Shown here: positions 3,638 through 54,981 of the stretch, piece after piece
How positions within the stretch are numbered: the first letter of the stretch is position 1
Layout: each line of letters begins with the position of its first letter
From: Chiloscyllium plagiosum
Taxonomy: Eukaryota
DNA: 64,000 nucleotides
Assembly: GCF_004010195.1 (NCBI RefSeq)
Contig: NC_057719.1
Location: 41,920,139 to 41,984,138 of the forward strand
Direction: 5' to 3'
Notes under the pieces: generated by a model
Database searches by the model: none
What the model was told of the DNA's origin: nothing
What the model saw: the letters and a program-made list of their open reading frames with translations, nothing else
Translations under genes and position numbers: made by a program

Positions 3638-4381
3638 CTGTTATGAATACTAAACAGTTATTTATTTCTTCATCAAGCTTATGTCAAGGTAACTGTCAAG
3701 TTGAGTGGAATACGATAGATGCACTATGAATTATGGACATAAAAATAAAGATAAAAAATGTTTTGAATAGCATGTAAGTACATACATGGTGTGTGATAGT
3801 GGGAACCTTGTTGTAACAATCATTGTCAGATTAGAAATAAGGAATATTGAAAAATGTTTATACAAATATTTAAGCAACTATTCAACAAGTGAGAAAGTAA
3901 AAATTGAATTCCTAGTTAATCCTTTTCATGTGTATGGTATTGTAGAAATTTAAAGGATTTGAAAGAATTAGGTAGAGCAGCAAATCAGAGCTGTTTTAAA
4001 TACCTGGTGGCAGCATTATTGACTGCTCCAGAAAAATATATTGCTTTTCAATAATACCCCAGTATTGAATGACATGATTCTAATTTAACATGGATGTGGA
4101 ATAAATTATGAACAGGAAAAATCCTTGCAGTTGACAATCAATACTGCTGGATATAAATAATGGAGTCAATAGTGATAATTCACTTTCTTTTGTGGGAAAG
4201 GACATCAGCATCTCATCTACAGACACCTAATACCACTAACCTAATGGACAACCTACACCGACATATAAATCATTGCCATTAACTGTTGAAGAACCAGGTA
4301 GTTTTGTTATTCATACCACAGTAGGGACTGATTCTCAGTTTTGAAGCAATTCAAGTTTGAAGCAGCTCTAATGGTTAGGTG

Positions 4382-4582
4382 TCGAGCGTGTAGTGCTGGA
4401 AAAGCACAGCGGGTCAGGCAGCATCCGAGGATTAGGAAAATCGACGTTTCAGACATTAGCCCTTCATCAGGAACATCCTGATGCCTGAAACATCGATTTT
4501 CCTGCTCCTTGGATGCTGCCTGACCTGTTGTGCTTTTCCAGCCCCACACTGTCGACTCTGATCTCCAGCATCTCACTTTCTC
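4382..4582. mobile_element. Palindromic PLE terminal element (family A)
   Basis: Inverted arms; hammerhead core on minus at 4443-4470; TSD ctaatggtt(a/c)ggtg at 4368-4381 and 4583-4596. Confidence 0.8.
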
Positions 4583-6296
4583 CTAATGGTTCGGTGCCCA
4601 ACATCACTGGGAAGAAGCAGAATCAATGTTCATGGTTGAGTATTTTTATTCTTCTATTGGTTAAATGAAAGTGGGAGTTCAGGTCACTATAAAGTCTTCA
4701 ATCAACTTCCAATTATATCCAAAGTGTTAATTTTCGAATTTATCATTTGTGTACACAATAGGAAAACATCATAAAGAGGATATTTGCTATTAAGCCAAAC
4801 TCATTTAGAAAATATTAATCTTCATAATGTTATCATTCATAATTCAGTGACATATCTGTATATAGGAGATATTGGAAGAATGAGTGTGGAGGATGCCTGG
4901 GAGGGCATGAGGCAAAAGTAGTCCTGAAGGGTTTTACAGCCTGATATTCATGGTACAATTGGGTTGTTGTCAAAATTAAGAGATGTGCCAAAGAGAGAGA
5001 AACATAGATGGACAATTGCCTCGATCATTTGCCATCTTGTGCTTCCTGCTGGTGGTTTAGGGTCTGGTTCTATTCCACTCCTGCATCCCCAGAACAAAAA
5101 TATGGCAAGTGTTTGTAAAAGGCAGGTCTGCTGACTTCCTATACTCAAACTCCCCACTCCCTCTTCAAAAACCCAACCCTACCTTGACTGTGCCTCTTTA
5201 TCCACCCTGTTTATCACATCCTCAAGGAAGGCTAAATTGTAAAATGGAATTTTCCTTTCATAAAATCATATTGACTCAACTTGATTGCGTTATGATTAAC
5301 GAAATATCCTGCTACTTCCTTAATGTTGTCACCTGAACTACTCTTTTTTACAGGTCTCCTTTAATCTAATTTCCTGTTTCCAGTTGCCTGGCATTGCAAT
5401 GTCAAGCTTGAGTTCAGTATTCAGTGACTGTGCTCCAATGCGATTGACAATCTTGAGACAATTCTCAGTACAAGAAGAATTCATCAGTCAATCTACTCAC
5501 CCATAATATGGGGCATTATAAATTAATTATGCAAAGAAGCCAAAATAATTAATGTGTTCTCAGTTTTGAAATGGAAGGCATCTAGTTACATGCAATACAT
5601 AGATATTGGGTAGTGTTAATTTAATGAAAATGAACCATTCTCAGCCCACACAACACATATCATGGATTTCATTGACATAAACTTTGAAATCAGGTTTCTC
5701 AGGGAAAATGTGTAGTTTGTGTTGGATGTGGGATAGCTTTGTTTGATGGCTTATTTAGAAAAAAATGGCTACCATGCATGATTTCTTCATTTAATCCAGG
5801 ACAGGATTCCAGTTCTAAAGCTAGATTACTTTGTGATGATTCCTCATCCAGAAAGGACATAAGGTTTGGGAATTTCCTTTCACCCCCTCAACCTATTCAA
5901 AAAGCTCATTTAACTTCTCATGATCAGAATGTCCTCACTCTGGGCCAAGTCTCTGACCTTTGATCATTGGCTTCCTGCTCTGTGAACTGAGAACTGAGGG
6001 AATGGCTTTCAAAGTTAAGTAAGTGATTATATGGAGTTCCTGAGGTGATAACAGTCAAACAATTGAGTAGGAACCTCAACAGAAGGCAGACCTAAGGCAA
6101 TATAGAGTTAACTTCACAGTAGTAAAATTATTCCTCATAAATAGCCTCAGCGGTATATATTGAAATCAATCTTGGGATGTTAAAAATGTGGAACAGTCAG
6201 GAATTTAAGGATCATATTCAGTTTGAAACCATTCACAGTTTTAAATATATTTTTCTTGTAATTAGGAGACAATCCATTATGCAATAAAAAGTGCCT

Positions 6297-6501
6297 ACCT
6301 TTTTACTCAGAGAGTAGTAAGGGTATGGAATGCTTTGCCTGCAAAGGTAGTAGATTCGCCAACTTTAAGTACATTTAAGTCGTCACAGGACAAGCATATG
6401 GACGTACATGGAATAGTGTAGGTTAGATGGGCTTCAGATTGGTATGACAGGTCGGCGCAATATCGAGGGCCGAAAGGCCTGTACTGTAATGTTCTATGTT
6501 C
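6297..6501 (+). mobile_element. CR1 LINE 3' end
   Basis: FTQRVVRVWNALP-coding segment; tail closely matches the minus-strand CR1 end at 20547-20770. Confidence 0.85.
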
Positions 6502-7121
6502 ATATTTAATTGTGCAATCCTTACTAGCCCTGATAAATCATTGTGTGATATGCATTACTGAATTGATAGAAATCGACTGTTCTGAAATTCCAGTTCCACA
6601 TACACTCACCCTGGAGATCCAATAATATAGAAAATTCAATACTGATTTATACATATCACCAATCAGGTTAAGAATACACATCTTGCAAAGGATTCTGGTT
6701 CTCTACAGACATCTCAAAACATAGTATATGCCTAGAATATAGCTGCTGGTTTTTAGATTTTGACAGATTTTGCACAGTACATTGCTAAGACTTGAAATGC
6801 CCTTGCCATCATGATCTTTACATTTGCACATTCATTTTTTAGCTATTGGACACGCATAAAAGTGTTATTAAAGTTTATCAGATGCAAGCTTCCGAAGTTT
6901 TTCTGAGTTCCAAAGTTTTTGTTTCCTCAAATCTGACTTATAATTGATATGAATTTGTATCCAGAGAGGATATGTTAGCTGATGCAACAATACTTAATAA
7001 AACCTTATAAATATTCTATTACACATAATACAATTATTCACAAACATTAGATTATATTGTATAGAAATATTACATTCCAAAAGAGTAGCACACATTTAGT
7101 AGTGTGACATGTTTCAAGTGA

Positions 7122-7330
7122 TGGAAATGTGTTGCTGGAGAAGCGCAGCAGGTCAGGCAGCATCTAGGGAACAGGAGAATCAACGTTTCGGGCATTAGCC
7201 CTTCTTCAGGAAGGGCTAATGCCCGAAACGTCGATTCTCCTGTTCCCTAGATGCTGCCTGACCTGCTGCGCTTCTCCAGCAACACATTTCCATCTCTGAT
7301 CTCCAGCATCTGCAGACCTCATTTTCTCTT
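7122..7330. mobile_element. Palindromic PLE terminal element (family A)
   Basis: Near-perfect inverted arms; exact 14-bp TSD catgtttcaagtga at 7108-7121 and 7331-7344; hammerhead core on minus at 7182-7209. Confidence 0.88.
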
Positions 7331-7439
7331 CATGTTTCAAGTGACCTTGGCACAAAATGAAATCTGAGACATCTCCACCTCAGGTCACATGCTATGATAC
7401 AATAATAATTCAAGTGTTTATTAAAGGAACACTTGACAT

Positions 7440-8038: not shown

Positions 8039-8279
8039 AACACATCATCCCACTTTTCCCAATGATGAAAATTTATCCAAAACAGATGTGCATGACTGTA
8101 TATCAGCACTCCCTTATAATTTGATAATTACACTAACGGGTAAAACAGAGTTTATATGACCAATATTTTATATTTCAATGTAATGCTTTAGAGATCTAAT
8201 AACACACCCTGATTTATCTGGAGGGATACACAATATTCACTGTTGCTCACTTATTGTACAATTAGTTTGTCTTCCTGCT

Positions 8280-10500: not shown

Positions 10501-10727
10501 ATAGCAAGAGTGATTTTCAGAGCCTGTGTCTCATAAAAATTTATTTTACAGGTTTTGCATTTCTCTCCTATTTTTCTTCTTGCTTCTCATCTTTTTAATT
10601 TTTCTCTGCTATTGCTCTTTTAAGAAATGTGGCCTTGAAGTTTAAGAACCTAAGGCTTGTAATAGCAGATTTTGACTCTAGGTAGCAATCATGCCAAAAA
10701 AGGGAATAGTGATACTGATGATAGGAG

Positions 10728-10930
10728 CAAATAACTGCAGATGCTGGAATCTGTACTGAACAACAAATGCTGGAGATCACAGGAAGTCAGACAGCATCCA
10801 TGGAGAGACAGCAAGCTAACATTTCAACTCTAGATGACTCTTCATTGGAGCTGAGTGGATGTGCCCTGATGAGCATGGACAGCATGGATGCTGTCTGACC
10901 CGCTGTGATCTTCAGCATTTGTAGTTTTCA
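10728..10930. mobile_element. Degenerate palindromic PLE terminal element (family-A relative)
   Basis: ctgcagatgctgg tail and arm aaatgctggagatcacagg...gtcagacagcatccatg, mirrored by catggatgctgtctgacc...gtgatcttcagcattt. Confidence 0.65.
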
Positions 10931-13085: not shown

Positions 13086-13089
13086 AAGA

Positions 13090-13345: not shown

Positions 13346-13884
13346 AAGGGATATAGAGGGTCACTGGCAGCAAGGCATGAAGGTTGCTTTCAGCGTGTCA
13401 TCCTTTTCTTCATGGGTCCAAGCACTCAATAGCTATAAACTCCATACAACCCTGTCACGGTAGGTGCTGCAAGACGTGTCAGAGTGTGGACATAGATACC
13501 ACCATTACGCATGGGGGACACCTCCCACCTTGTACATGGCAGGTACTCATGTGACTCAGCCAACGTTGTCTATCTTATACGTTGCAGGCAAGGATGCCCG
13601 GAGGTATGGTACACTGGGGAAACTGAGCAAAGGCTACGACAACGGATAAATGGGCACCGCACAACAATCAACAGACAGGAGGGTTCCCTCCCAGTTGGGG
13701 AACACTTCAGTGGTCCAGGACATTCGAACTCAGACCTTCAGGTGACCATCATCCAAGGCAGACTTCGGGACAGGCAGCTGCGAAAAGTGGCCGAGCAGAG
13801 GCTGATAGCTAAGTTCGGTACCCATAGGGATGGCCTCAACTAGGACCTTGGGTTCATGTCACATTACAGGTGACCACCATTGCA

Positions 13885-14160
13885 CTATACACACGCAGAG
13901 ATACTCCTACACATACACACTCTCACACACACACAGACACTCCTATACACACAAACACATGGACACACATATATACAGACACGCACACAGACACCCACAC
14001 ACACCCTTGCAGACACACACTCCCACACTCACACATGCGCCCCCTCACAGACTTAAGACACTCTGCATCACTACACACACACATACACTTTCTCACACTC
14101 ACAACCCCCAACCCAGACAGACCCACACACATAGACAAACAAAGACCCACATGCGCACAT
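13885..14160. repeat. CA-rich low-complexity tract in the family-B 3' UTR
   Basis: Imperfect (CA)n/(CACAGA)n run; explains the H/T-rich spurious ORFs. Confidence 0.85.
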
Positions 14161-14570
14161 ATATTTTGTGGGGTGAATTTGTTCTTGCAGAGTTACATTG
14201 TACTTTGCTCAAAAACTGCATGCATTCATGTAGAACTCTGAGCTCAAAAACTGCATGAATTTATGTAAAACTCCGTTATCTCATTTTTTAGATTAGAATC
14301 AATCTAAACATCATGGCATAGACAGAGAACACAGGGGGCTAACACCTTCAACATATTGTCTAGCTATCACCATTGTTAACAGCTAACCTGAGAATGCAAC
14401 TTTTTTAAAAAAGGTTTTGTGATTTACACATGAAAGAAGTGAAACTATCATGGTATTCTAACAGATGAAAGGCTTAACAGACAATCAATCTTTCAATGTA
14501 TAATTTCAGTTACATCACACTGTAAATTTTTGCTATAAATTCTGTGTGTTAGGATTGAGCCCTCCACTAC

Positions 14571-14605
14571 CACCTGATGAAGGAGCAATGCTCCGAAAGG
14601 TAGTG
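14571..14605 (+). ncRNA. Minimal type I hammerhead motif (family B)
   Basis: CAC-CTGATGA-A-GGAGC-AAT-GCTCC-GAAA-GGTA-GTG; helix I CAC/GTG; other copies read GCTA in place of GGTA. Confidence 0.75.
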
Positions 14606-15009
14606 TGCTTCCAATTAAACCTGTTGGACTATAACTTGGTGTTGTGTGATTTTTAACGCTGTAAACAAAGGTTCCCTTTTGGATGCCCACCAGCAAATAC
14701 AGCATGGTTTTCTTGTGCTTCCCACATGGGAGACCCTACCACCGGTTAACACCAATGTAGCCAGGCCGTCAGCTGGACACTTATTCCAATTAAAGGCCTC
14801 AAGTGACAAGGTAGTTTGAAGGCCATCCATAGGCCTTCCCATCATAGAATTGGCATAGAGACAGGAAAACTCTCAGGTTTAGCAAGGCCCACTGCTACCA
14901 ATTTCCTCTTAGAGGAGGACATAACATTCTGCTTATTGTTTCTCAGCATTTAATTCCAATTTGTTCTTCATTTGTAATTTGTTTTCAGTTTGATTGTAGT
15001 TTTGCTTAG

Positions 15010-16359: not shown

Positions 16360-16751
16360 AACAAGGACTGTAGATGCTGGAAACCAGATGCTAGATTAGA
16401 GTAGTACTGGAAAAGCACAGCAGTTCAGGCAGCATCCGAGGAGCAGGAAAATCGACGTAAGGTGATAGATCAGAAAGGAGGGTGGAGTGGAAGGTGGAAA
16501 GGAAGATAGGCATGTAGGACAATTCATGGGGACAGTACTGAGCTGGAAGTTTGGAACTGGAGTGAGGTGGAGGAAGAGGAAATGAGGAAACTGGTGAAGT
16601 CCACATTGATGTCCTGGGGTTGAAGTGTTCCGAGGTGGAAGATGAGGAGTTCTTCCTCCAGACATCGGGTGGTGAGGGAGCGGCGGTGAAGGAGGCCCAG
16701 GACATTCATGTCCTCGGCTGAGTGGGAAGGGGAGTTGAAATGCTGGACCAC
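16360..16751 (-). mobile_element. Penelope family A 3' fragment (GIY-YIG C-terminus and terminus; hammerhead deleted)
   Basis: VVQHFNSPSHSAEDMNVLGL...LEEELLIFHLGTLQPQDINVDF followed by the family-A terminal sequence. Confidence 0.85.
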
Positions 16752-17189: not shown

Positions 17190-17390
17190 CTTAGAAACCA
17201 AGTGTAAACATTAACATGGACAGGCATAGTATCAATGGAGTTGTCGTAGATAGAACAGATATGCAGGAACTAAACAGCAACAACACCCGATCATGTGAAT
17301 TAATCCAATGTAGGTCAATTAGAATGTTGCTGAAAATGTGTTGCTGGAAAAGCGCAGCTGGTCAGGCAGCATCCAAGGAACAGGAGAATC

Positions 17391-17418
17391 GACGTTTCGG
17401 GCATAAGCCCTTCTTCAG
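17391..17418 (-). ncRNA. Minimal hammerhead motif (family A) on the KIF28 sense strand
   Basis: CTGAAGA-A-GGGC-TTAT-GCCC-GAAAC-GTC on minus. Confidence 0.8.
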
Positions 17419-17426
17419 GAGAGCTC

Positions 17427-17454
17427 CTGAAGAAGGGCTTATGCCCGAAACGTC
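17427..17454 (+). ncRNA. Minimal hammerhead motif (family A)
   Basis: CTGAAGA-A-GGGC-TTAT-GCCC-GAAAC-GTC on plus. Confidence 0.8.
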
Positions 17455-17579
17455 GATTCTCCTGTTCCTTGGATGCTGCCTGACCTGCTGCGCTTTTCCA
17501 GCAACACATTTTCAGCTCTGATCTCCAGCATCTGCAAGTCCTCACTTTCTCCTCCAATTAGAATGTTACTTGGTTTGGG

Positions 17580-19251: not shown

Positions 19252-19939
19252 CTTAGAAAATCACGTGCAGGAATAAACAACACATACCGATTAATTTTAA
19301 GGCATTAGCACTGAAAATCCACACAATGTAATCTCGATTATACACATCCAATGCAGATCATTTGAAGAAACTGGGACGGCAGCTAAAATTCATAGGATAG
19401 GACAGTGAACATGTATCCCTATGTCATCCATGATCTACCTCCTTTTAGCGGAAGGTTTTCTATCCCTCCCACAAACTGTATGCAACCCTCAATTAACCTC
19501 TGAAACCAATCTTAATTTTTTTTTACTCACTCACAGAATGTGGGTGTCGATGGCTTGGCCAGCATTTATTACCCATCACTAGTTGCCTTGAGGTGGTGGT
19601 GGTAAGCTGTCTTTATGAACTGCTGCAGTCCATGTGCTGTAGGTCAACCTACAGTGCCATTTAGGGAGGGTAGTTTCAGGATTTTGATGCACAGAAGAAA
19701 TGGTGGTATATTTCCAATTCAGGATGGATGCCTTGGTGGGGAACTGGCAGGTGGTGTTCCCCATGTATCTGCTGCACTTGTCCTTCAAGGTAGAAGTTGT
19801 GGGTTTAGAAGGTGCTGCCTTAGGAGCCTTTTCTGTAATCCATCAATCAGATGATGCACTCTACTGCTACTGAGTGTTGTGAAGTGAGTGGATATTTGTG
19901 GATGTGGTGTCAATCAAAAAGGCTGATTTGTCCTGGATG

Positions 19940-20163
19940 GTCGAGAGTGTGGTGCTGGAAAAGCACAGCAGGTCAGACAACATCCGAGGAGCAGGAGAAT
20001 CGATGTTTCGGGTAAAAGCCCTTCATCAGGAATCGTCCTGATGAAGGGCTTTTGCCCAAAATGTCAATTTTCCTCTTCCACGGATGATGCCTGACTTGCT
20101 GTGCTTTTCCAGCACCACACTCTCGACTCTAATCTCCAGCATCTGCATTCCTCACTTTCGCCT
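19940..20163. mobile_element. Palindromic PLE terminal element (family A)
   Basis: Inverted arms around ...cttcatcagg aatcgt cctgatgaag...; both hammerhead cores carry point mutations; no clear TSD. Confidence 0.8.
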
Positions 20164-20546: not shown

Positions 20547-21678
20547 ATAGAATATAGAACATAGAACATTACAGCGCAGTACAGGTCCTTCGGCCCTCGA
20601 TGTTGCACCGCCATGTCATACTAATCTGAAGCCCATCCCACCTACACTGTTCCATGTACATCCATATGCCTGTCCAATGACGACTTAAATGCACTTAAAC
20701 TTGGTGAATCTATTACCATTGCAGGCAAAGCATTCCATACCCTTACTACTCTCTGAGTAAAGAAACTACCTCTGACATCTGTCTTATACCCATCTCACCC
20801 TTTCCAAAGCTTCCACATCCTTCTTATAATGCGGTGACCAGAACTGTACACAATACTCCAAGTGTGGCCGTACCAGAGCTTTGTACAGCTGCAGCATAAC
20901 CTCCTGGTTCTGGAACTCAATCCCTCTATTAATAAACGCCAAGACACTGTATGCCTTCTTAACAACCCCGTCAATCTGGGTAGAAACTTTCAGGGATATG
21001 TGTAAATGGGCACCAAGATCTCTCTGCTCATCTGCACTCCCAAGAATCTTACCATTAGCCCAGTACTTTGCATTCCGATTACTCATCCAAAGTGTATCAC
21101 CTCACACTTGTCCACGTTAAACTCCATTTGCCACCTCTCAGCCCAGCTCTGCATCCTAGCTATGTCTCTCTGCAACCTACTACATTCTTCGTCACTATCC
21201 ACAACTCCACTGACCTTAGTGTCGTCCGCAAATTTACTACCCCACCCTTCTAAGCCCTCATCCAGGCCATTTATAAAAATGACAAACAGCAGTGGACCCA
21301 ACATCAACCCTTGCAGTATGCCACTAGAAACTGGACTCCAAGATGAACCTGTTCCATCAACTACAACCCTCTGTTTTCTTTCAGCAAGCCAATTATTGAT
21401 CCAAACTGCTATGTCTCCCACAATCCCATTCCTCCGCATTTTGTATAATAGTCTACTGTGGGGAACCTTATCGAATGCCTTGCTGAAATCCATATACACC
21501 GCATCAACCGGTTTACTCTCATCTACCTGTTTGGTCACTTTGTCAAAAAACTCAATAAGATCCGCTAGGCACGACCTACCCTTCACAAAACCGTGCTGAC
21601 TGTCCCTGATCAGATTATTCATTTCTAGATGGTTATAAATCCTATCTCTTATAACTTTTTCCAACACTTTACCAACAA
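20547..21678 (-). mobile_element. CR1 LINE, RT to 3' end, with internal deletion near 20790
   Basis: ORF 21083-21724 QHGFVKGRSC...YMDFSKAFDKV...KFADDTK; RPHLEYCVQFWSP; (TTCTATG)n tail. Confidence 0.95.
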
Positions 21679-29000: not shown

Positions 29001-29267
29001 TCTTCAAAGAGAAGGTACATTTTTTATTTAAACGCCCACAAAAAACGTAGGGAGTTCTTTCAACCTTCAAGAAGAAATGACTGCACTTTTGGTCATGCCA
29101 ATTTTTTTTATTCTGAGTATTCAGAATCAGAAGTGACAAGCTTTAAACAATTTCCTGAGGGCTTCTGAAGGTCAAGATATTTCAGGCTGTAGATCCTTAA
29201 AGACTGGACATTACCCAAAGGGTTGTGTCAAAACTTCCATCCTTCAGATTAGATTTCATTCTGTGCA

Positions 29268-29552
29268 GTGTGGAAACAGGCCCTTCAGCCCAGCAAGTCC
29301 ACACCGACCCTCCAAAGAGTAGCCCACCCAGACCCATTCCCCCTAACTAATGCACCTAACTCTATGGGCAATTTGGCATGACCAATTCACCTAACCTGCA
29401 CATCTTTGCACTGTGGGAGGTAACCGGAGCACACCCATGCAGACACAGGGAGAATGTGCAAACTCCACACAGACAGTCGCCCGAGGTTGGAATCGAACCC
29501 AGGTCCCTGGCATTGTGAGGCAGCAGTGCTAACCACTGAGCCACCGTGCCGC
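29268..29552 (-). mobile_element. HE1-type V-SINE
   Basis: Same head, core and tail as 1788-2076; B box GGTTCGATTCC. Confidence 0.88.
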
Positions 29553-29869
29553 CTAACCATACATAAAATAGGTCAAAGAAACACGCCAAACAATGGGAAT
29601 GTGATTACCTGCAAAGATATCCAAATTGCGCAGTGATCTCAGGTTTTATAAAGTCACAACATTGAATGGAGGCATGTTGAAGAAGAATAAAAGTGAGCTT
29701 AGGGAAATGAACAACATGCCAATTGTGCAGAGTGAACTCGATAGAACACATACAGATATGACAATGTGATGGGACACCAAGACAATGAATGACACTCTGA
29801 CAACACATCTGAAAATCAAGAATATTGGGAATCCAAATTGACATCTCCACAGGGTTGCACCATAACAAG

Positions 29870-31789: not shown

Positions 31790-32079
31790 GGGAGACAGGC
31801 TGCCTACTTGCGGAACATTTCAGAGAACACCTCTGGAACACCCGGACCAACCAACCCAACCACCCTGAGGCTCAACACTTCAACTCCCCCTCCCACTCCA
31901 CCAAGGACATGCAGGTCCTTGGACTCCTCCATCGCCAGACCATAGCAACACGACGGTTGGAGGAAGATGCTTGACACACTTTCCTCATTCCTGAAGAAGG
32001 GCTCATGCCCGAAATGTCGATTCTCCTGCTCCTTGGATACTGCCTGACCTGCTGCGCTTTTCCAGCAACACATTTTCAG
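31790..32079 (+). mobile_element. Penelope family A fragment (GIY-YIG remnant, internal deletion, hammerhead 31991-32018)
   Basis: AEHFREHLWNTRTNQPNHPEAQHFNSPSHSTKDMQVLGL; short TSD caccatt. Confidence 0.85.
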
Positions 32080-33994
32080 CACCATTCAAGACAAAACAGC
32101 CAACTTAATTGGTGCCACTTCCACAAATATTCACTCCCTCCACCACCAATGCATACTGGCAGCAATGCTTCCATTGTTAAGATGTACTGCATAAATTCAC
32201 CAAGCTCATACGACAGCATCTTCTAAACCCAAAAACACTACCATCTTGAAAGAGATGGTATCAGATACATGGGAATACCACCACCTATGAGTTCCTCTCC
32301 AAGCCACTCAACATCCTGACTTCAAAACATATTGCCGTTCTTTTAGTGTCACTGGGTCAAAAGCCTGGAACTCCCTCCCCAAATGCCGGGTGGGGGTAGC
32401 TACACTAAATAGATTGCAGTGGGTCAAGAAGGCAGCTGGTCATCATCTTCTCAAGGGCACGTAAGGATGGGCAGTAAGTACAAGCCCAGACAGCAATGCC
32501 CACTTGCCATGAATGAATTTTAAAAATTCCTGCATCACTCCAGCTAAAATAGATGTGGTAGTGTGGATATTCTATAAAAGAATCAATATGCCTAGAAACA
32601 TGGGTGTAGTAATGTGCAATTCTGTTGCAATACAATAAGACGTATTTCCTGAATGTGGTTGTTTACATTGTTGCTTAAACAAAACCTCTTGAACTTCCAG
32701 ACAGGAATTTCTTTCTTCGTGTAACCATCACAAGGTGCTAAGAAATTAAAACCCAGTGGAAAGCTTGCACTCATTCAGTCCCCAAAATGAAGGTTGCTGA
32801 CAGCTGTGTACTCAAACCTTAATAAGCCACTATCGGCAGTAATCCTCAACACAGTGCTCAGCAGATCATGACCAGAATTACCATGTGCTCAGTCAAGGAA
32901 TAAATATGCACTTGATGTGCAGCTAATCCACAATTAGTCGTAAACAAACACTTCACATCTAAAGAAGTATTACAGTTTCAATACACAGCTAATTTAGCAA
33001 AGGAAATGTGAACGCTTCAGGAGATCAGGAATATGAATGAAGGCCTGTTTGACGTTTTATATTCTTTATGATTTGAGATCAACTGTCATTTCTCCTGTAT
33101 TAGATAGTGAGAGTAGGCAACAGTAAGACTTATGAATGCAAAATTTGCTCTTGAGGTCTGAAGGATATCAGAGGGTCAGTCAGTTGCATTACCTTCTTAC
33201 AAAGAGTTTCAGAGAATGTACAACACTTATATAGACTGCTCCATGTTCCATATAGTTTTTTAAATGTGAATGAAACTACCATTAGAAAACAATGTACTAA
33301 AGAATACAAACTGCACAGCAAACAAACCTAGCAGTTACAAAATAAGATTTCACTGGAGACAACGCAACCCCCATTGTAGGTTGATGCACCACTTCTTGTT
33401 AGTCGGTTGTGCATATCTGTGAAACAGGAAACTGAGAGGATCACTTAAGGAGTTGGTCACATTTTACGTTAGGAGCATACAAGCAGAAAGAGATAGGGTG
33501 ACCACCAAACAGTTGAAGAGAGCAAAGCAGGCAGTGGATGGTGCTTGCTCCATCCTGAATATTGGTGAGGGCAAGGGAGAGCAGCTAGAGCCCATTTGTA
33601 GCACCACGACTGACTTAACTCCTCAGGGCAGGAGGAAGAAGAATAGAAGAGCAGTAATGTTAGGGGATGCTGCAATAAATCATTTCTGACTCCAGGATGG
33701 TGTGTTGCCCTCTCTGACCCAGAGTCAGCATCCCATACAGTGGCAGGTAAACTGACGACGAGCATCAACCAAGCTTAGAATGCAGCATAATGTCAGAAAG
33801 ACAAAGTTAAGGGCACTCTACCTGAATGCACAAAGCATTCCTTGAAGGTCACCACACTTCAGGTTTGAAAGATTAAAAAGGTAGGATCTTCATGGTAATC
33901 TCAGGAATCAAACCTATGCTGTTGGTGTCATTCTGCATCATAAATCAACCACCACCAAATTGTGCTAATCAACCACTTAGGTATTATAGTAATT

Positions 33995-34197
33995 AGAATT
34001 AGAATCCCGACAGTGTGAAAACAGGCCATTTGGCCCAACAAGTCCACACGCAGAACCATTCCCCTGTACCTATTACTCTACATTTCCCCTAACTAATGCA
34101 CCCAGCCTACACATCCCTGAACACTGTGGGCAATTTAGCATGGCCAATTCACCTAACCTGCACATCTTTGGACTGTGGGAGGAAACCAGAGCACCCT
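33995..34197 (-). mobile_element. HE1-type V-SINE, 5'-truncated
   Basis: V core and tail only. Confidence 0.8.
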
Positions 34198-35556: not shown

Positions 35557-36612
35557 AACATAGAAACACAGAAACGTAGAAGATAGGAGCAGGAGGAGGC
35601 CATTTGGTCCTTTAAGCCTGCTTTGCCATTCATCACGATCATAGTTGATTGTCCAACTCAACAGCCTAGTCCTGCTGTCTCCCTATAATCTTTGATCCCA
35701 TTCACCCCAAGTACAATATCTAGCCACCTCTTGAATAAAGTCAGTGTTTTGGCACCAACTACTTCCTGTGGTAATAGGTTCCACAGGCCGACCACTCTTT
35801 GGGTGAAGAAGTTTCTCCTCATTTCCATCCTAAATGATCTACCCCAAATCCTCAGAGTGTGATCCCTGGTTCTGGACACACCCACCATCAGAAACATCCT
35901 CCCTGTATCTACCCTGTTTAGTCCTGTTAGAATTTTAGAAGTCCCTATGAGATCCCCCCTCATTCGTCTGAACTCCAGGTAAAACAAGTCTAACCTTGTC
36001 AATCTCTCCTCATTCGTCAGTTCTGCCATCCCCAGAATCAGCCTGGTAAACCTTTGCTGTATTCCCTCTAGAGCAAGAGCATCCTTCCTCAGAAAAGGCT
36101 AGGTGTGGCCTTACCAAGGCCCTGTACAACCGCAACAACACATCCCTGCTCCTGTGCTTGAAACCTCTCACAATGAGCATCAACATACCATTTGCCTTCT
36201 TTACCGTCTGCTGCACCTGCATGCTTATCTTAGGTGACTGCTGGAAATGTGTTGCTGGAAAAGCGCAGCAGGTCAGGCAGCATCCAGGGAACAGGAGAAT
36301 CGACGTTTCGGGCATAAGCCCTTCCTGAAGAAGGGCTTATGCCCGAAACGTCGATTCTCCTGTTCCCTGGATGCTGCCTGACCTGCTGCGCTTTTCCAGC
36401 AACACATTTCCAGCTCTGATCTCCAGCATCTGCAGACCTCACTTTCTCCTATCTTAGGTGACTGGTGCACAAGAACATCCAGGTCCCACTGCACACTACC
36501 CCCCTCCCAATTTACGACCATTCAGGTAGTAATCTGCCTTCTTGTTTTTGCTTCCAAAGTGAATAACCTCACGTTTATCCAAGTTATACTACATCTGCCA
36601 TTGGTTTGCCCA
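35557..36612 (-). mobile_element. CR1 LINE 3' portion with nested PLE palindrome
   Basis: LEFRRMRGDLI...FFTQRVVGLWNLLP; LYRALVRPHL. Confidence 0.92.
36241..36449. mobile_element. Palindromic PLE element (family A) inside CR1; hammerhead on plus at 36325-36352
   Basis: Exact 15-bp TSD tatcttaggtgactg at 36226-36240 and 36450-36464. Confidence 0.9.
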
Positions 36613-38499: not shown

Positions 38500-38798
38500 G
38501 AGCGACACGGTGCTTAGCACTGTTGTCTCACAGCACCAGGGACCTGGGTTCAATTCCTGCCTCAGGTGACTGTGTGGAGTCTGCACATTCTCCCTGTGTC
38601 TGCATGGGCTTCCTCCAGGTGCTCTGGGTTTCCTCCTACAGTCCAAAGATGTGCAGGTCAGGTAAATTGGCCATGCTAATTTGTCCATAGTGTTAGGTGC
38701 ATTAGTCAGAGGGAAATGGGTCTGGATGGATTACTTGTCAAAGGGTCAATGTGGACTTGGGCTGAAGGGCCTGTTTCCACACTGTAGGGAATCTAATC
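38500..38798 (+). mobile_element. HE1-type V-SINE
   Basis: GGTTCAATTCC B box, V core, tail ending aatctaatct. Confidence 0.85.
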
Positions 38799-40004
38799 TT
38801 ATGCCACCTGATTTTACACATCCCACCCCAAAGCTGGCAGCTGACTCCTGGGGTGGTGGGGAGGTGTAGGGGTGGGCAAGTAAACTTCTAGTCATGAAAT
38901 CCTGTTGTGGAACTTGCCTATGCAAACTCCACAGGTAGTTAATTGTAAATATTTTTACAAGAGGCCCTTTTTGCGAATCTAACATATCTTCCTTTTATTA
39001 AAATACATTTTGTAATAAAAAAGTATCTATCAGAAACAAATGGAACCTCACAGTACTAATGTTTTGAAAATATTATCAAGCGAAAAATGATTTTCCAGCT
39101 TTACATTTATAAAGGCAGATCAAAATCTGAATGATATTCCACCCAAAATATATTGCCTTTGAGAGGTTACCTGTGCCTGTAAATAACCAGCTCTTAGAAT
39201 TGTCACTCAGCACGGTGTTTATAGTTTTCTGTACTCATGTCATCAGATCACTGAAGGTCAATGAACTATTATAATGCTGCCTGAAGCAGGCCCCTTGAAC
39301 ACATTCATTATCAGTTTTTATGCTACTCATCTTACAGATGTATGCCAATGCTTTTCATGAATGTTAAAGTGTGAGTTTAGCTCTTGTGTGACTGAAACAT
39401 AACAAATATAAACATATAAAATAATGGCCTTTTTGACTGTGTCTTCATTAGAAGTAATTATCTACTTTGTTACTTTCACATTTTAAAAACAGAAGTAGCT
39501 GTATACATGTTGGTAAACTGTTGTAAGTCAAAACCAAGTGTATTTTTTTTTACTCTGCATCACCTTTGAATTATCTCTTTGGTACTTCCTTAAATCTGGT
39601 CATAATTATCCTACAAAGCAACCTGCTTGTCTTGGATTATATAAAGCAGTATTCCCATATCATTCTAATTGATAATGCACAATGACTCATATCTTCAATG
39701 TTTTACACTTGTCTTTAGGTCTAAACAAGTTTTCAGTAATGTGTTCAGAAAACAAGTAGCAAATCTAGTTCATACTTCCATCAGTTTCCATTTTAATATT
39801 AAAACATTAAGTGTAGTTATCTTACAATAATTAACAAGCATGTAGGAATTAGACATATATTGTTACACAATTAGGCAAGAAAACCATTCACCCAAATCTC
39901 TCAAAGTTAAAATAATCAGATTTTTAAACTATTTAATTACACACTGAGGAATGAATTCAAATTTTTTCTGCACATTTTGCCATCTTCAACTGGGTACAAA
40001 CATA

Positions 40005-40335
40005 GAGTTCTTACAGTGTGGAAGCAGGTCATTTGGCTCACTGAGTCCACATTGACCTCCAAATAACATCCCACTCTAATCCACCCCATCCCTGAAACCC
40101 TCCACTTCCCCATGGCTAATCCACCTAGCAAGCACATCCCTATGGGCAATTTAGCATGGCCAATGCACCTAATCTTGGCACATCTTTGGACTGTGGGAGG
40201 AAATCAGAACACCTGGAGGAAACCCATGCAAGCAGGAGAATGTGTAAACTCCAGAGAGTTGCCCAACGCTGAATCAGAGTCGGGTCCTTGGTGCTGTGAG
40301 GCAACAACGCTAAGCACTTAGCCACCATGCCACCC
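40005..40335 (-). mobile_element. HE1-type V-SINE (diverged)
   Basis: Head, core and tail recognisable on minus. Confidence 0.8.
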
Positions 40336-44050: not shown

Positions 44051-44054
44051 GTAT

Positions 44055-46790: not shown

Positions 46791-47063
46791 TTTAATGAGC
46801 TACAAGCTTGGATTCATTGGAAAGTGATGGCAGGTGATGGAGTGGAATTAACCAAAATTTGACTGGCTGTGAATTTCGCATGTAATACAAAAAAGTCAAA
46901 TAAACCTTTTGTACAATCGTAAACTCCTTTCAATCAATAGAAAAACAATTTACCATCTCCAAACGTCATTATAAAAATTATATGAATGCTACTATCAAAC
47001 CAGCTGCGGTTGCATAGTATACAAAGTGACCAAGAAACTGCCAGACAAGACATATATTCAGAG

Positions 47064-47190
47064 AAGGCGAAAGTGAGTAATGCAGATGCTGGAGATCAGA
47101 ATCAAGATTAGTGTAGTGCTGGAAAAGCACAGCAGGTCAGGCAGCATCCGAGGAGCAAGAAGATTAATGTTTCAGGCAAAAGCCCTTCAT
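47064..47190 (-). mobile_element. Single-arm PLE family A terminus truncated within the hammerhead core
   Basis: TSD cata(t/c)attcagag at 47051-47063 and 47191-47203; on minus the element begins at (TG)ATGAAGGGC. Confidence 0.8.
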
Positions 47191-48131
47191 CATACATTCA
47201 GAGTAGCACAACTAAAATCTTAGGATAACATCATCAACAAAGTGTAATAAGAAGCACTAAGCTCTAAATTTTCAAATATCTCAAAATCTCTGTCTAAAAA
47301 TCTCCAAATACATAGAAAGGTTAACAAAACTGATTCCATGAGCACATATTTTAGTCACCAACATAAAGTGGATTCTCCCCTTCATGCTCTTGTACGCATT
47401 CTCTGACATGGCTGTACAGATCTGGACTAAAACAGTCTCAATTAATTTAAAATGATAACTGAGATGTTCCAAAGATTTCACATCTGAATTTCCATATTGT
47501 TATCTTTCATTATACTAACTCAAGAAATCATTCCCATGTGTAATAAAGCTGAGAAATTTACTTGGAACACCTTTTAAGATATTAAACATAGCAAAATGTC
47601 AGCAGCCCCAAAAGTTTCTTTACTTTTATCCAATTTCCTGTTATTATTTTTCTGAACTGCCGGTTAAACTGTCCAATCTTTCAAACTCACTCCAAATGGT
47701 CTTTGAGATAGGTCCCTTCCTAATTTAATTTCAAGACTGATTCATTCATTGGAGCACTGGTGTTAGCTGATGGGCAGCTGGTGTTTTATGCCATTAGTGT
47801 GCTAGCAATTTGGCACCAGATTCATGCTGTAATGAGGGTGATGTGTGTATATGACAGAAGAAAGTGAGACACAAATCCAAGCATTCTGGTGGAAGCTAAA
47901 GTTTGGGTCATGCCAAGTATAACATGATGCACATGGGACAGAAATGTTAACTATTGGTTTATTTGCCCAAAGCGGATGTCATTATTCTTACTGCAAAGCA
48001 CACTGCATAAAGCTGTTTGCTCTGAAATGTTAATGCTGCCACTACGGCTGAACTGAAACCCATTGGCTTCACTGGTGTGAACAGTCTGTTGCTAACTTTC
48101 TCCTGATTAAGATAAACTCTATTGAAATTTG

Positions 48132-48297
48132 GAGATGCCGGTGTTGGACTGGGGTGTACAAAGTTAAAAATCACACAACACCAGATTATAGTCCAACAAG
48201 TTTAATTGGAAGCACACCAGCTTTCAGAGCTCCGAAAGCTAGTGTGCTTCCAATTAAACGTGTTGGACTATAACCTGGTGTTGTGTGATTTTTAACT
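48132..48297. mobile_element. Palindromic PLE terminal element (family B)
   Basis: Inverted copies of the 14595-14657 terminus centred on helix II (ctttcagagctccgaaag); TSD aactctatt(g/c)aaatttg at 48115-48131 and 48294-48310. Confidence 0.85.
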
Positions 48298-48515
48298 CTA
48301 TTCAAATTTGTTTTTAATGTTCACTTTGGCCACTACGTTTCATCAATTTTATTGGTTTGATTAATGTGCCGAGGGCCTTACAAAGGTGCAGGTTGAGAGG
48401 TTGCCCATGAACCTTATCACCTATCCCTTAATTGCTGAGGTAGTGAGAAAGGGATGAGTATATCCCCATAGCCAAACCAAACAATTACTTGCCTTACCTG
48501 GCACATTCCTCAACA

Positions 48516-48838
48516 CTGAAAATGTGCTGCTAGAAAAGCGCAGCAGGTCAGGCAGCATCAAAGGAGCAGGAGAATCGACGTTTCGGGCATGAGCCCTTTT
48601 TCAGGAATGAGGAAAGTGTGCCAAGCAGGCTAAAATAAAAGGTAGGGAGGAGGGACTTGGGGGAGAGGCGTTGGAAATGCGATAGGTGGAAGGAGGTTAA
48701 GGTGAGGGTGATAAGGTGAGAGTGATAGGCCAGAGTAGGGGTGGGGGCGGAGAGGTCAGGAAGAAGATTGCAGGTGAGGAAGGTGGTGCTGAGTTCGAGG
48801 GTTGGGACTGAGACAAGGTGGGTGGAGGGGAAATGAGT
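48516..48838 (-). mobile_element. Penelope family A 3' UTR and terminus
   Basis: Matches 54790-54980 in reverse; hammerhead core mutated to CUGAAAA. Confidence 0.85.
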
Positions 48839-51078
48839 AACACTTCAGAAGTACTTAATTGACTGCAAAGGACTTTGGGATATTCTGCTGTCAGGAACTT
48901 TGAGTTAGAGGCTTCCTTGTATTGTGTCTGTTTCCATAGAGTGCATTTTCTGCAACAGTTTGCCAGCGGCTATAGCTTGACGAATGCCTCTCCATTTCAA
49001 ATTTGCTGAGCAGAATGCCCTCTTCCTTTTACCAACTGCCACAGGTGTATGGTAGGATTTACAGGTTAATAATGAAATCACTTTCTGTGGTCATTACATG
49101 ATGGAATAGGACTCAAGCCCAGTGTTAAACTCAAAGGCTGGTACACAACCTTCTGTAACACAAAACATCCAAGTTCATGAAAGGCATAATTCTACATCTT
49201 TATTTTCTTCTTTCATAGGGACAACATTGCATTTACTAGCATTTCATGAACCTGACCCATCTTTGAACCTGGTTAAAGACTATTACAGATAGAAACAAAG
49301 ACTTGTTCTTTAACATCAAATATGAATATGGCATGTGTAGACTGCTTACCATAGTGAGACATAGACTAGAAGAAATTCATGCAGAAGCATACCAGTGCCT
49401 AGGCCTACATGCCCTTCAACAGGAAGAATATAAATTATAAATATTTTTGAATAACCTGGATGGAGTTTAATTTCTGCCACTGTGTTCAAAATGTTCAAAT
49501 GTTTAAAATGTTCATTTATTATTTCGACTGCTGTTTATGAGCATTTATTGGTTTTGCCACATACAAAAACAACATTTTGCAATAGTTATTATAACACAAA
49601 AAAAGTGGCTTGACCCATTGCAAAAGGAGAGAGAAAGTTGGTAAGGGTGAAAAGTAATTAACAATTCCAGTCTTCCTGTTGTTTTCTGATGTAAATTATG
49701 GTCTCTCTGGGGACTCATTTATTTTCCTGCAGAATACATATAATACAAACAATATGTAAATTCAGTATTTTGCATCTAAAAGCAAAACCAGTGTCAAAAT
49801 TGGGATTGAAAGGTAGCATTTACGGAACGGACAACATTTATTTTAAGTTAATCAACCATAAAAATGCTAATCGACTACAGCTGTACTTAATTATTAGTCA
49901 ATTATCTGGCTGACTTTCTACATGGCATGAAACAGATAGGAACTGCTTTTAGGCTTTTAGTTACCCTGCTGTCATCAATCCTCATCACGGCGTGTCTTGA
50001 TTTTGACAAGAGAGCAAGCATTGTCGGCAAGTAGACTCTATGCATCTGTGCAGCATGATGTGACCTTCCTGCTGAGTGTTGTGTCTTCTTGCCTATAGCA
50101 TGGAATATAAATGGCACTGAAAACTTCAGATAATTATGAAGCAGCAATGATAACTGCGGAGTAAAATAAGATATCAAAAATACTATGGGCATTATTATTT
50201 TTACTGATGTGATTGAAAAATGTTACGAAAGAGCTGCAAAGTGAATAGACATCTTTTGCTGTGGAAAGTCACGTGGGTTTTTATTATTGTTTCTGCAACA
50301 ACAAAAAAAATACTGCTGTGTTTCCAACACAACTTTATTGCCTGAAGGTACAAATTAAGATTAAAAACAGCACAATATCCTAATTCTAGGTTAATCTAAT
50401 TTTGATAGATATGTTAAATTCAAAGCCTAACTGGATTTAACAGTTGCTCCAATACTAAGGGTCAATTAGCTTCACAACTGAGTTAGCGTAAAATGTTAAT
50501 GGCTACAGAGCACACATTCTGTACTTGTTTGGGAGCCAGTAGCTGCCAATTGGCTTGAATACAAGCATGGCTGATGTCTCGAGTGAGATGTAACCATCCC
50601 ACAGATGTGACACCAGGGATCCACAGTGAGGACATATCTAGTGGCTATGTGGTGCACAATTAGCTACTTTGCAAACAATTTTTTTAAATCTCATATGTGA
50701 GAAGCATTTGAACATTTTTCACAATTGCTGTCTATACTCAGATACTGTTTATTAGAATTATGTTCATCAAGAATATATGAAACATGAACAGGAGCACACT
50801 ATCTGGCCCCTTGAATCTTCTTAACCATTCAGGGAGATCATTGTTGTTCTAATTGTGGCCTTCTTGATTAATATTCTGTTTAGCTCAGCTTTGGATAAAC
50901 TCAATGATCCAGCCTCCACTGCCTCTCTGTGGAGGATTCCAAAAATTAAAGACACTTCTGAGAAAAGTTTCTCCTCTGGTTAGTCTTAAATTGGAGGTCA
51001 CATGTATTGAATTTGTGCTAGATTCCCCTTTGATGGGATATGTACTCTCAGCAGCTACCTTGCCTAGTCTCTTCAGAA

Positions 51079-51293
51079 GAGAAAGTGAGGACTGCAGATG
51101 CTGGAGATCAGAGCTGAAAATGTGTTGCTGGAAAAGCACAGCAGGTCAGGCAGCATCCAAGGAACAGAAGAATCGACGTTTCGGGCATAAGCCCTTCTTC
51201 AGGAATGAAGAAAGTGTGTCCAGCAGGCTAAGATAAAAGGTAGGGAGGAGTCCTGCTGACCTGCTGCGCTTTTCCAGCAACACATTTTCAGCT
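51079..51293. mobile_element. Asymmetric inverted PLE family A element; intact hammerhead core on minus at 51175-51202
   Basis: Long minus arm plus ~40-nt plus arm; TSD cta(g/a)tctc(t/c)tcagaa at 51064-51078 and 51294-51308. Confidence 0.85.
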
Positions 51294-51334
51294 CTAATCT
51301 CCTCAGAATCCTGTATGTCTCAATCAGATCATGT

Positions 51335-51622
51335 CTCAGTGGCTCAGTGATTAGCACTGTTGCCTCACAGCACCAGGATTCCATGTTCAATTCCAGCCTC
51401 GGACAACTGTCTGTGTAGAGTTTGTACATTCTTCCTGTGTCTGCGTGGGTTTCCTTCCACAGTCCAAAGATATGCAGGTCAGGTGAACTGGCCATGCTAA
51501 ATTACCCATAGTGTTAGGTGTAGTAGTCAGAGGGAAATGGGTCTGGGTGGGTTACTCTTCAGAGGGTTGGTGTGGACTGGTTGGGCTGAAGGGCCTGTTT
51601 CCACACTGTAGGGAATCTAATC
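51335..51622 (+). mobile_element. HE1-type V-SINE
   Basis: tggctcagtga A box, tgttcaattcc B box, core and tail. Confidence 0.85.
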
Positions 51623-51954
51623 ATTCTTCTAAATTCATTGAGTAGAAGTCCGACTTGTAGAATCTTTCCTCATTAGCCAATACCTTCATCCCAGGAGTGA
51701 GCCCAGTAGTGAATCTTCTCTGAATATTTTTTTCCCCAAAAGAAACATATTTTGCACAAAATTTGAAGTGTACATTTTTAAAAAAAATACTCTTGAAACT
51801 TACAGAATTTTTAATAAAATTCAATTTGACTCCATTCAACATGTTTCAATCTGAAGTGCCTCAATACCCTTAATATTGTCATAACTAATCATGGGACCCA
51901 GTTTGCAATCATTTAAAGATGCTGAGTATCACCAATTTTATGTAAGATCAATGT

Positions 51955-53095: not shown

Positions 53096-53604
53096 GTTTA
53101 GCCTCACAGATAGAGGGAGGGGAGGAGGAGAAGGCAGCTTGCATGGACACTCAGGCCTGGAAGGATAGGTCATTGGTGGGTGTGCAATGCAATGTGGTTG
53201 TGGTCATGGTAGATTGAAGGATCCAAGGAAGAATAGTGGGTGGGGTCAGGGCAGTAGAGAAAATGGGAAAGGTTTGGCAGCCTATGGTGGGAACAGTGAG
53301 TCTAGGCAAGAAAATGAGGATTTGAAAAGGTTGTGTCAGTACTATCCACTGAGAGTGTCAATCTCAAAATGTTGGCTGCAGAGGGCCAGGGCTTTTAGTT
53401 TATCTACATTTCAATTATACCTGCCACAAGTGATCGAGAGTGATGTCCTTCATAATGCATAGGATAAAGAGTCAGCCGGGGCTAGTGAATACAACACAGG
53501 ATATTCAATAAAAGGAACATTCAATAAATAATTAACACAAACACACATGATTGTTTCCTCCTCAACAACGAAATGTCCCTAACATCCAATGTATGTTAAC
53601 ATGG

Positions 53605-53765
53605 GGTCATAGAGGTATAGAAATGTAGAGCACAGAAACAGACCCTTCAGTCTAACTCATCCATGCTAACCAGATATCCTAAATTAATCTAGTCCCATTT
53701 GCCAGCACCTGGCCCATACACCTCTAAACCCTTCCTATTGATATATCCATCCAGATGTTTTTTAG
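53605..53765 (-). mobile_element. CR1 3' tail
   Basis: Matches the tails at 55729 and 59517. Confidence 0.8.
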
Positions 53766-54711
53766 TGCCAGTATATTTAGTTTTCTGACTGTTAGCCCCA
53801 GCAAACAACATTGCATGCATGAATAAAGTGACAGCAATGTAATGTGACATCTTCACAAATAGAATTTAATTTTGAAAAATGTCCGCGTGACTTTTTTGTT
53901 TTCGAGTTTCATGTTAATAACAATGGAGTTGGCCATGCATGGTTTGGCTGGGATGTAAAGCTTCACTGATTGACCAGAAGGCTTTCTTTTATCTCACCCA
54001 TAGCAGCAGCATTGTGGGAAAAGGGTGCCCCTCTTGGGAATCACACGTTTCATGTGCATGCTGCCAGCATTGGATTTTAATTAAAGTCCCATGGAAAAGG
54101 GCGGGAAAGCAAGAAGCTGGAAGCAGCAAAGTCTTTACGTTCCACCACTGGGTGCAGCATGCCACTGACAAAATTCTGCCCTTTGTATCTTGCTCACAAT
54201 TACCACCTATTTTTCTATAATAAATAGTTCAAACCCCAGCACTGATTATTGTGGTGTTCCACTAGTTACTTTGCCAGTCTGGCAAAAGATCCCTTCTGAC
54301 CTATAAACTACGAAGGATTCATGCCTCTTGTGAAATGTGAAAGTTCCTGTTAAATGTCATCAACTCCTCCAGCTGTGCCTCTTCACAAGGTCCTGGGGAT
54401 CTCAGGGCTTCACCTCAGTGACATTAAACACATCCAGCTGTGTCACTCAGGCAACTGAAAGTGCCTTCATATTTTAGATGTCAAATTCACAGAATCCTAA
54501 TTTAATAATGACTGGAACTTGAAGCATGCTTTTAAATAATTCTTTCAACACATTCATTATTTATATCAAGAATAAATTATGAATTATTTACATCGATCAA
54601 CACAAACCAAATGGAATACACCAATACATTTCTCTTTAAGAAGGGTAGAAGTTCAGCAAAAATTGTATTTAACTCAATCAGAAACAAGAGGTAGAATCTT
54701 ACAGAAGCCTG

Positions 54712-54981
54712 AACAACAGTTGGAGGAAGAGCGCCTCATCTTCTGCCTGGGAACCCCCCAACCACAAGGGATGAACTCAGATTTCTCCAGTTTCCTCATT
54801 TCCCCTCCCCCCACCTTGTCTTTCCAACGCCCCTCCCCCAAGTCCCTCCTCCCTACCTTTTATCTTGGCCTGCTGGGCACACTTTCCTCATTCCTGAAGA
54901 AGGGCTTATGCCCGAAACGTCGATTCTCCTGTTCCTTGGATGCTGCCTGACCTGCTGCGCTTTTCCAGCAACACATTTTCA
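54712..54981 (+). mobile_element. Penelope family A 3' fragment with intact hammerhead core (54894-54921)
   Basis: LEEERLIFCLGTPQPQGMNSDF then CTGAAGAAGGGCTTATGCCCGAAACGTC. Confidence 0.88.

Follow-up and report, generated by a model that had tools for sequence, protein, structure and literature searches.

Hammerhead motifs in a 64-kb window of Chiloscyllium plagiosum very probably head the pseudo-LTRs of a high-copy Penelope-like element

Why do so many hammerhead ribozyme motifs lie so close together in a 64-kb window of the Chiloscyllium plagiosum genome (NC_057719.1, positions 41,920,139 to 41,984,138, renumbered here from the first letter)? The original prediction had read them as a dense set of minimal hammerhead ribozymes stemming from a single Penelope-like element (PLE) family, called family A. 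That reading gets the kind of motif right but claims too much for its function. The motifs very probably represent the hammerhead head of the pseudo-long terminal repeat (pseudo-LTR) of a high-copy, endonuclease-bearing PLE, each locus being a short retrotransposed 3′ end of that element and the palindromes among them being twin-primed. Throughout, nucleotide C3 of the motif is numbered +1, and hammerhead cleavage is expected after +28.

A hammerhead pattern allowing up to three mismatches matched the window 14 times, with 0.01 matches expected and none of 100 shuffled sequences getting to 14. We also applied a structure-aware descriptor that demanded the two boxes together with helix II, pairing at 15.2/16.2 and the UH of the cleavage site. 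It selected exactly seven sites (C3 at 4470-, 7209-, 17418-, 17427+, 36325+, 51202- and 54894+), and its strict form found nothing across 100 shuffles. These are the very seven motifs previously listed as intact, and the four described as mutated were located as well, giving all 11 predicted sites once it is recognized that the minus-strand coordinates denote the low, C17 end. The variants of loop II (TTAT, TAAT, TCAT and TTTT) and the ACGT of helix III are also as originally described. The CUGANGA and GAAA boxes and the NUH cleavage triplet are complete in seven copies, the motif at 7209- terminating in GTT instead of GTC. Our searches added a shortened and mutated motif at 47166-47193(-), two motifs in which an inversion junction takes the place of the first box (7205(+) and 36302-36329(-)), two motifs of a second PLE family, B (14574(+) and 62629(+)), and, by eye, a decayed motif of a third family near 10811-10850(-). 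An extra A between positions 9 and 10.1 is present in all 14 tabulated motifs. The 10.1-11.1 pair is G-C in 12 of these 14 and G-T in the motifs at 4470 and 47193. Helix III (15.2/16.2) is a palindrome without a loop 3, reading ACGT in family A and AGCT in one of the two family B copies. By its sequence anatomy the family A motif is a hammerhead, with four features described for minimal PLE hammerheads in PMC4209133: the boxes of the core, an additional base between 9 and 10.1, pairing of G10.1 with C11.1 and a palindrome at 15.2/16.2.

How are the motifs related to each other? Every family A motif is the head of one and the same module, consisting of the 28-nt hammerhead, a further ~62 nt and an optional tail of ~36 nt (~125 bp in all). 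The module ends at two fixed points, ~+88 to +93 in tail-less and ~+122 to +127 in tailed copies. The window holds 17 such arms at 11 loci, which fall into two subfamilies, A1 being the younger and A2 the older (Table 1). The motif copies are therefore members of one repeat family, not independent ribozymes. In DNA contigs, the summed depth on the 51202 copy was ~10 million over the module as opposed to ~7 in the flank, a figure that is not a copy number but shows that family A is a very abundant genomic repeat. As such a repeat occupies 11 loci within 64 kb, motif density equals local repeat density. In metagenome scans, the 28-nt motif had no match; a 22-nt stretch hit ten metagenome loci, none of which matched past 25 nt, and these were dismissed as chance matches.

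The identity of the element is given by coding remnants. A 469-aa protein labelled Rhincodon typus shares 64% identity with the 56-aa remnant at 16584-16751(-) (E 6e-13; six hits among 13 candidates). This protein has a GIY-YIG Pfam match above and an RVT_1 match below the cut-off, and in two longer relatives of it both the reverse transcriptase (RT) and the GIY-YIG domain are present. Using the Rhincodon typus protein as a tblastn query, we retrieved 16751-16536 (E 5e-15), 31792-31965 (3e-11) and 54588-54854 (6e-9). GIY-YIG remnants in broken reading frames thus stand directly upstream of the 3′ pseudo-LTR at three of the 11 family A loci; by themselves, the three gave no Pfam match. Because they match a protein of the RT plus GIY-YIG type, we assign family A to the endonuclease-bearing PLEs, and the same remnants supply the PLE link, in support of the original prediction of minimal type I PLE hammerhead motifs. 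The homologue carries a C-x4-CxxC linker at residue 318, a region that the family A remnants do not span, and a CX2-5CxxC linker is described as common to Neptune and Nematis (PMC8557442). Judged by these similarities, the element is probably of the Neptune type.

In three of the four longer copies, sequence has been lost internally from between the end of the endonuclease and the ribozyme (16458, 31968 and 54821); one of these deletions joins at the ACGT of helix III. The tails (e.g. 36414-36450(+)) resemble a 3′ splice site, with a branch-like CTGAT and two CAG. As no long open reading frame (ORF) starts in the module and the tail resembles a splice site, the ORF may need splicing.

The architecture of the insertions points to the way in which they arose. 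Five loci (4.4, 7.2, 17.4, 20.0 and 36.3 kb) are head-to-head palindromes and a sixth, at 51.2 kb, is asymmetric. Each palindrome bears the tail on one arm only, and the other arm stops at the tail-less end point, as do three solo tail-less copies; the junction centres vary from locus to locus. Target duplications of 12-14 bp were found at six of the seven tailed family A loci searched, with scores of 9-16, when random position pairs gave a score of 9 in 1/300 and of 10 in 0/300 cases. The palindrome at 20.0 kb is the tailed locus where a duplication was sought and none was found. The four longer copies comprise two with duplications of 6-7 bp and two without. The length of the duplication seems to be tied to the tail: most tailed loci have 12-14 bp, and solo copies lacking the tail have 6-7 bp or no duplication (32076-32087, 48510-48519 and 54975-54990), small numbers in both cases. 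Young arms share variants private to their locus: those at 7.2 kb are 1/81 apart and differ at no fewer than 3/81 positions (at least 3) from any full-length arm elsewhere. The arms of old palindromes have diverged at 10/70 and 12/75 sites, which argues that they are not homogenized by ongoing conversion. Together, the private variants shared by young arms and the divergence of old ones indicate that both arms derive from one source copy.

PLE insertions in other hosts are reported to contain an inverted, 5′-truncated pseudo-LTR, one tail, a junction overlap and a target duplication (PMC3846280, PMC8557442). For an Anolis PLE, the tail is described as lying between two internal start sites of reverse transcription, with both target strands being cut and extended (PMC11167929). 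By analogy with the Anolis element, each of the two end points of the family A module would mark an internal site at which reverse transcription starts, and both target strands would be cut and extended by the element's protein. Both strands of a staggered cut would be primed, one per start site, on RNA from one source copy, and the two cDNA ends would then be joined to yield a palindrome. The hammerhead would be under selection in source elements, where it probably cleaves slowly as a dimer with the help of protein; the dispersed copies would decay and mostly be unable to fold a hammerhead.

Two further observations concern the insertion ends. The tail-less ends of the 20.0 kb (A2; 19939-19945) and 32.0 kb (A1; 32081) copies hit the same position of the same repeat, which resembles a long interspersed nuclear element (LINE); this may be chance or a target preference by microhomology. 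The junction at 17.4 kb contains an insert, AGAGC (17419-17424), identical to how a cDNA initiated at ~+93 would begin; a loose-end consensus resembling it occurs in read run X16. The insert is possibly an aborted re-start.

The one less ordinary feature of family A is that copies begin at the 5′ edge of the ribozyme rather than at its cut site. Eleven of the 17 arms, at six of the 11 loci, have their start in the interval from -4 to +7. No arm starts at +29, for which reason we rejected ribozyme cleavage as the origin of this boundary. A splice acceptor was rejected as well, no AG being present just upstream of -4. On the 51202 copy, depth dropped between 51188-51199 and 51212-51223 from 10.5 million to 2.65 million in DNA contigs (3.9-fold) and, in RNA reads, from 1047 to 183 (5.7-fold). 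Markers of A2 made up 11-17% (DNA contigs) and 25-36% (RNA reads) of the aligned sequence, too little for subfamily divergence to account for the drop. Among the 5′-side loose ends listed from raw reads, the largest, at 51206 or -4, comprised 157 reads with mixed flanks and an agreement of 0.41. Contig joints from 51203 to 51079 and from 51207 to 51080, linking -1 or -5 with the end of the tail, correspond to tandems of 125-128 bp. Position -4 is the A of the heptamer TCATTCC, ~30 nt downstream of a weak TATA-like stretch. This heptamer fits initiator consensuses, the background of which is 12.9 and 2.1 per kb per strand. The position of the top listed loose end at an initiator-like A suggests run-off cDNA from a transcription start.

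It is a serious possibility, and the reading of the boundary that we prefer, though one that we hold slightly short of probable, that twin priming is accompanied by such run-off: the template RNA would start at -4, cDNA would run off its end after ~95 or 130 nt to give the short unit, and template jumps would give the short tandems. The clustered arm starts, the drop in both kinds of depth, the loose end at -4 and the tandem joints at the same boundary all favor this. A precedent for a promoter near the ribozyme comes from the Penelope element of D. virilis, for which a start in the pseudo-LTR, 46 nt before an intron, is reported (PMC2377424) and in which the end of the intron maps to helix I (PMC4209133). 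Nevertheless, the initiator match was made post hoc in a pyrimidine-rich region (five matches in 320 nt), and the ends in the window are scattered over -4 to +7. A cap-derived extra G is not consistently present, with G found at only two junctions in the window. About one quarter of the DNA depth carries on upstream, five loci reach further, and the three loci of family B lack such clustering. The RNA reads, moreover, mostly represent genomic copies inside host transcripts and therefore show copy ends, not transcription starts. We regard as doubtful the more far-reaching proposal that, with RNA starting at -4, the dominant unit, as a run-off cDNA, is a counterpart of retroviral strong-stop DNA, that downstream cleavage at C17 leaves a redundancy of 32 nt (-4 to +28) at both transcript ends like an R region, and that the ACGU palindrome joins two pseudo-LTRs like a dimerization signal. 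If true, the hammerhead would serve strand transfer and twin priming. This would explain how the pseudo-LTR is regenerated and why the motif is retained although cleavage is dispensable for insertion in vitro.

Could the boundary arise without an RNA end? A single cDNA might fold back near the ribozyme and copy itself, in which case the palindromes would be self-primed and the 5′ clustering would reflect a hot spot of fold-back or stalling. Self-priming has been proposed for PLE palindromes (PMC3846280) and would be expected to produce private variants common to both arms. A fold-back leaving a loop of 5 nt is predicted at -3 with a probability of 0.28. The junctions at 7.2 and 36.3 kb fit it and are equally compatible with either origin. 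However, the strongest predicted fold-back points are +9/+10 (0.90-0.93), where none of the five palindromes is centered. The solo copy at 47.1 kb and the tandem joints have the same boundary without any inversion, the second arm stops where solo tail-less copies stop, and the zero-spacer center of a family B palindrome, a single case, is more easily reached by annealing of two cDNA ends. Fold-back is therefore, in our judgment, unlikely, if not negligibly so. Far less probable still is that the palindromes are miniature inverted-repeat DNA transposons or tandem retrozymes and that the hammerhead match is incidental. Short (~200-225 bp), high-copy inverted-repeat units with target duplications, together with a few 125-128-bp tandem joints genome-wide, would fit such elements. 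Yet the centers vary by locus and the tail is on one arm only, leaving no single fixed unit, solo and longer copies continue into GIY-YIG sequence, and a tandem array of the unit was not found in the window. The variable junctions have already largely refuted this reading.

It also appears very improbable that the dispersed copies are active ribozymes processing host transcripts, despite seven intact motifs and the presence of the family in polyA RNA on both strands (3009 reads in one single-cell run, 96% of which continue into unlike sequence). Nine of the 14 motif matches and five of the seven intact motifs belong to one or other of the five palindromes. These form 90-bp hairpins with energies of -127 to -191 kcal/mol, and helix II has a probability of 0.00 in the two loci computed. 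As the paired motifs lie on opposite strands, one transcript cannot form a cis dimer, and the nearest intact pair on the same strand is 2.7 kb apart. Helix I is marginal, an upstream hairpin is predicted to be able to cover the first box in native context, and the core is decaying at CpG sites. According to published data, minimal PLE hammerheads do not cleave as monomers and do so at a low level as dimers (PMC4209133). The Anolis hammerhead requires protein, is dispensable for insertion and yields no RNA ends at the cut site (PMC11167929). Our RNA reads showed neither an end pile-up nor a depth step at the cut site (1450 vs 1306) in a library that is a poor test, being unable to capture cleavage ends. 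Most of the dispersed copies are probably inactive as ribozymes where they are located. The implied dense set of working ribozymes is not supported: the density is repeat copy number, helix I is weak and, in the two palindromes computed, the hairpin removes helix II.

Is the fold nonetheless conserved? Variants shared between loci occur at three of five free positions (N7 and loop II), and the 18 constrained non-CpG positions carry none (Fisher p 0.006). The variants listed from read data inside the motif are CpG changes or fall in N7 and loop II. Both boxes and the extra A persist in family B, where the helices are different; this supports conservation of the fold. Several results weigh against reading the motifs as the hammerhead of an endonuclease-bearing PLE with twin-primed palindromes. 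Shared variants are not significantly rarer in the ribozyme than in the downstream pseudo-LTR (0/18 vs 10/58, p 0.11), nor are private ones (3/225 vs 23/805, p 0.24). Helix I has two Watson-Crick pairs followed by U-U and A-U, with a predicted pairing probability of at most 0.07 in native context. A double-hammerhead fold reaches -10.5 kcal/mol, compared with -18.9 for helices II and III alone and -24.1 for the cofold optimum, in a model that ignores the tertiary energy of the core. A covariance-model check, proposed along with the original prediction, turned out negative: Rfam gave no hammerhead at the gathering threshold, nor when the window was searched at E values up to 10, nor for 91 nt surrounding 54894. 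The Rfam matches listed were mostly microRNA-precursor models on the palindromes, all under their gathering scores. Rfam hammerhead models expect a real helix III. Finally, the window holds no family A reverse transcriptase, so RT and endonuclease are linked only via the Rhincodon typus homologue, and the ambiguity of the 7.2 and 36.3 kb junctions noted above counts here as well.

Table 1. Family A loci in the 64-kb window, the initiator-like heptamer and the loci of family B
Feature	Position	Strand	Details
A2 head-to-head palindrome	4368..4595	.	tail-less arm with intact motif (C3 4470-); tailed + arm with internal motif deletion; ~13-bp target duplication at 4368 and 4583
A1 palindrome	7108..7344	.	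intact motif 7182-7209(-); tailed + arm; overlapping junction, 5-nt spacer; 12-14-bp target duplication; arms differ 1/81
A2 copy	16364..16751	-	GIY-YIG C-terminal remnant 16584-16751, 3′ untranslated region (UTR), end module joined at +24, hence most of hammerhead deleted
A1 palindrome	17316..17567	.	two intact motifs 17391-17418(-), 17427-17454(+); both arms start -2; tail on + arm; 13-bp target duplication
A2 palindrome	19940..20163	.	both motifs mutated, 20002-20029(-), 20038-20065(+); arms start -4 and -2; within LINE-like repeat
A1 tail-less copy	31792..32080	+	GIY-YIG remnant 31792-31965, internal deletion joins to -23; mutated motif 31991-32018; 7-bp duplication
A1 palindrome	36226..36462	.	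tailed arm bears intact motif 36325-36352(+); junction overlaps; 14-bp target duplication; arms agree at 81/81 sites
A2 solo tailed copy	47051..47206	-	starts ~+2; mutated motif 47166-47193; ~13-bp target duplication
A1 tail-less copy	48516..48834	-	3′ UTR uninterrupted; motif 48577-48604, G8 to A; 6-bp duplication
A1 asymmetric palindrome	51066..51308	.	tailed arm, intact motif 51175-51202(-), ~50 nt native upstream; short inverted arm 51253-51302; 13-bp target duplication, 2 mismatches
A1 tail-less copy	54714..54981	+	C-terminal GIY-YIG remnant 54714-54797; 3′ UTR shortened; motif 54894-54921 intact, native context
Initiator-like heptamer TCATTCC	54888..54894	+	A at 54890 = -4, candidate RNA 5′ end; also in 31991, 48604 and 51202 copies
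Second PLE family (B)	13450-14666(+), 62343-62723(+), 48115-48310		three loci

Family B comprises a GIY-YIG remnant (13544-13849) and a long 3′ UTR with an AC-rich microsatellite. Its two hammerhead-like motifs, at 14574 and 62629, have one core change each; helix II has five pairs, helix III has AGCT for ACGT, and helix I has three pairs, the second of which is swapped. The family B palindrome (48152-48297) bears one tail and a target duplication, its center lying inside helix II. A third, decayed PLE-like end (10720-10926) contains the mutated motif found by eye and a 44-bp inverted arm, and its tail region resembles that of family A. The window also contains an RT fragment at 21086-21817(-) (RVT_1 E 6e-26; no match to the PLE protein) that is probably from a LINE family; fragments related to it lie near 26-27 kb, 44-45 kb, 55.7-57 kb and 59.5-60.3 kb. 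A dispersed repeat of ~300 bp, similar in size to short interspersed nuclear elements and ~75-81% identical between copies, occurs at 1775-2078, 29252-29553, 33998-34195, 38506-38802, 40097-40335 and 51339-51622.

Hammerheads of this class have been known since 2014 and the insertion architecture since at least 2013; what is described here is a further host lineage and a further family. In the open-licence literature, as distinct from Repbase or Dfam, where the family may well be catalogued, we found no report of a Penelope hammerhead in sharks, the one paper that matched using 'shark' for the shape of the fold, and nothing joining Neptune, Penelope and a shark genome. Among the matches listed from it, 'twin priming' never appeared together with pLTR and nothing relevant dealt with strong-stop in PLEs. 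Two supplementary files of PMC4209133 contain no shark term. Family A supplies very many short, sharp-ended insertions on which PLE transposition can be tested, including the questions of where the template RNA starts, how inverted pseudo-LTRs form and what purpose the conserved hammerhead serves. Should the -4 boundary be a transcription start, family A would make it possible to test directly for a strong-stop-like step in this class of retroelements.

In comparison with known systems, family A resembles the minimal PLE hammerheads described in PMC4209133 in the boxes of its core, in having one more base between 9 and 10.1, in G10.1-C11.1 and in a palindromic 15.2/16.2 without loop 3, as well as in its pseudo-LTR position, its thousands of dispersed single copies and its close opposite-strand pairs. 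Its helix I has two Watson-Crick pairs, where 4-5 bp are given for Schistosoma families and 2 bp for a Drosophila virilis variant, and its helix II has 4 bp, where 7-8 bp are given for Schistosoma. With the PLE insertions of PMC3846280 and PMC8557442 it shares head-to-head arms, junction overlap, a tail (30-40 bp) on one arm and a target duplication. In contrast to what is described for those insertions, a family A insertion often consists of just two end modules (~200-225 bp) and its junction lies at the 5′ edge of the ribozyme; its target duplications measure 12-14 bp, those of Adineta 8-10 bp. Like Poseidon PAc of Anolis carolinensis (PMC11167929), family A has two fixed 3′ end points around the tail, a hammerhead ~90-125 nt upstream and no RNA ends seen at the cut site. 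Unlike PAc as reported, it has a homologue with a C-x4-CxxC linker (Neptune/Nematis type) and lacks a long ORF starting in the ribozyme. Non-LTR retrozymes, reported from one cartilaginous fish, likewise have a type I hammerhead and a PLE pseudo-LTR origin (bioRxiv 10.64898/2026.07.22.740005); they are described as tandem units, each with a hammerhead, whereas the copies in the window are solo or inverted.

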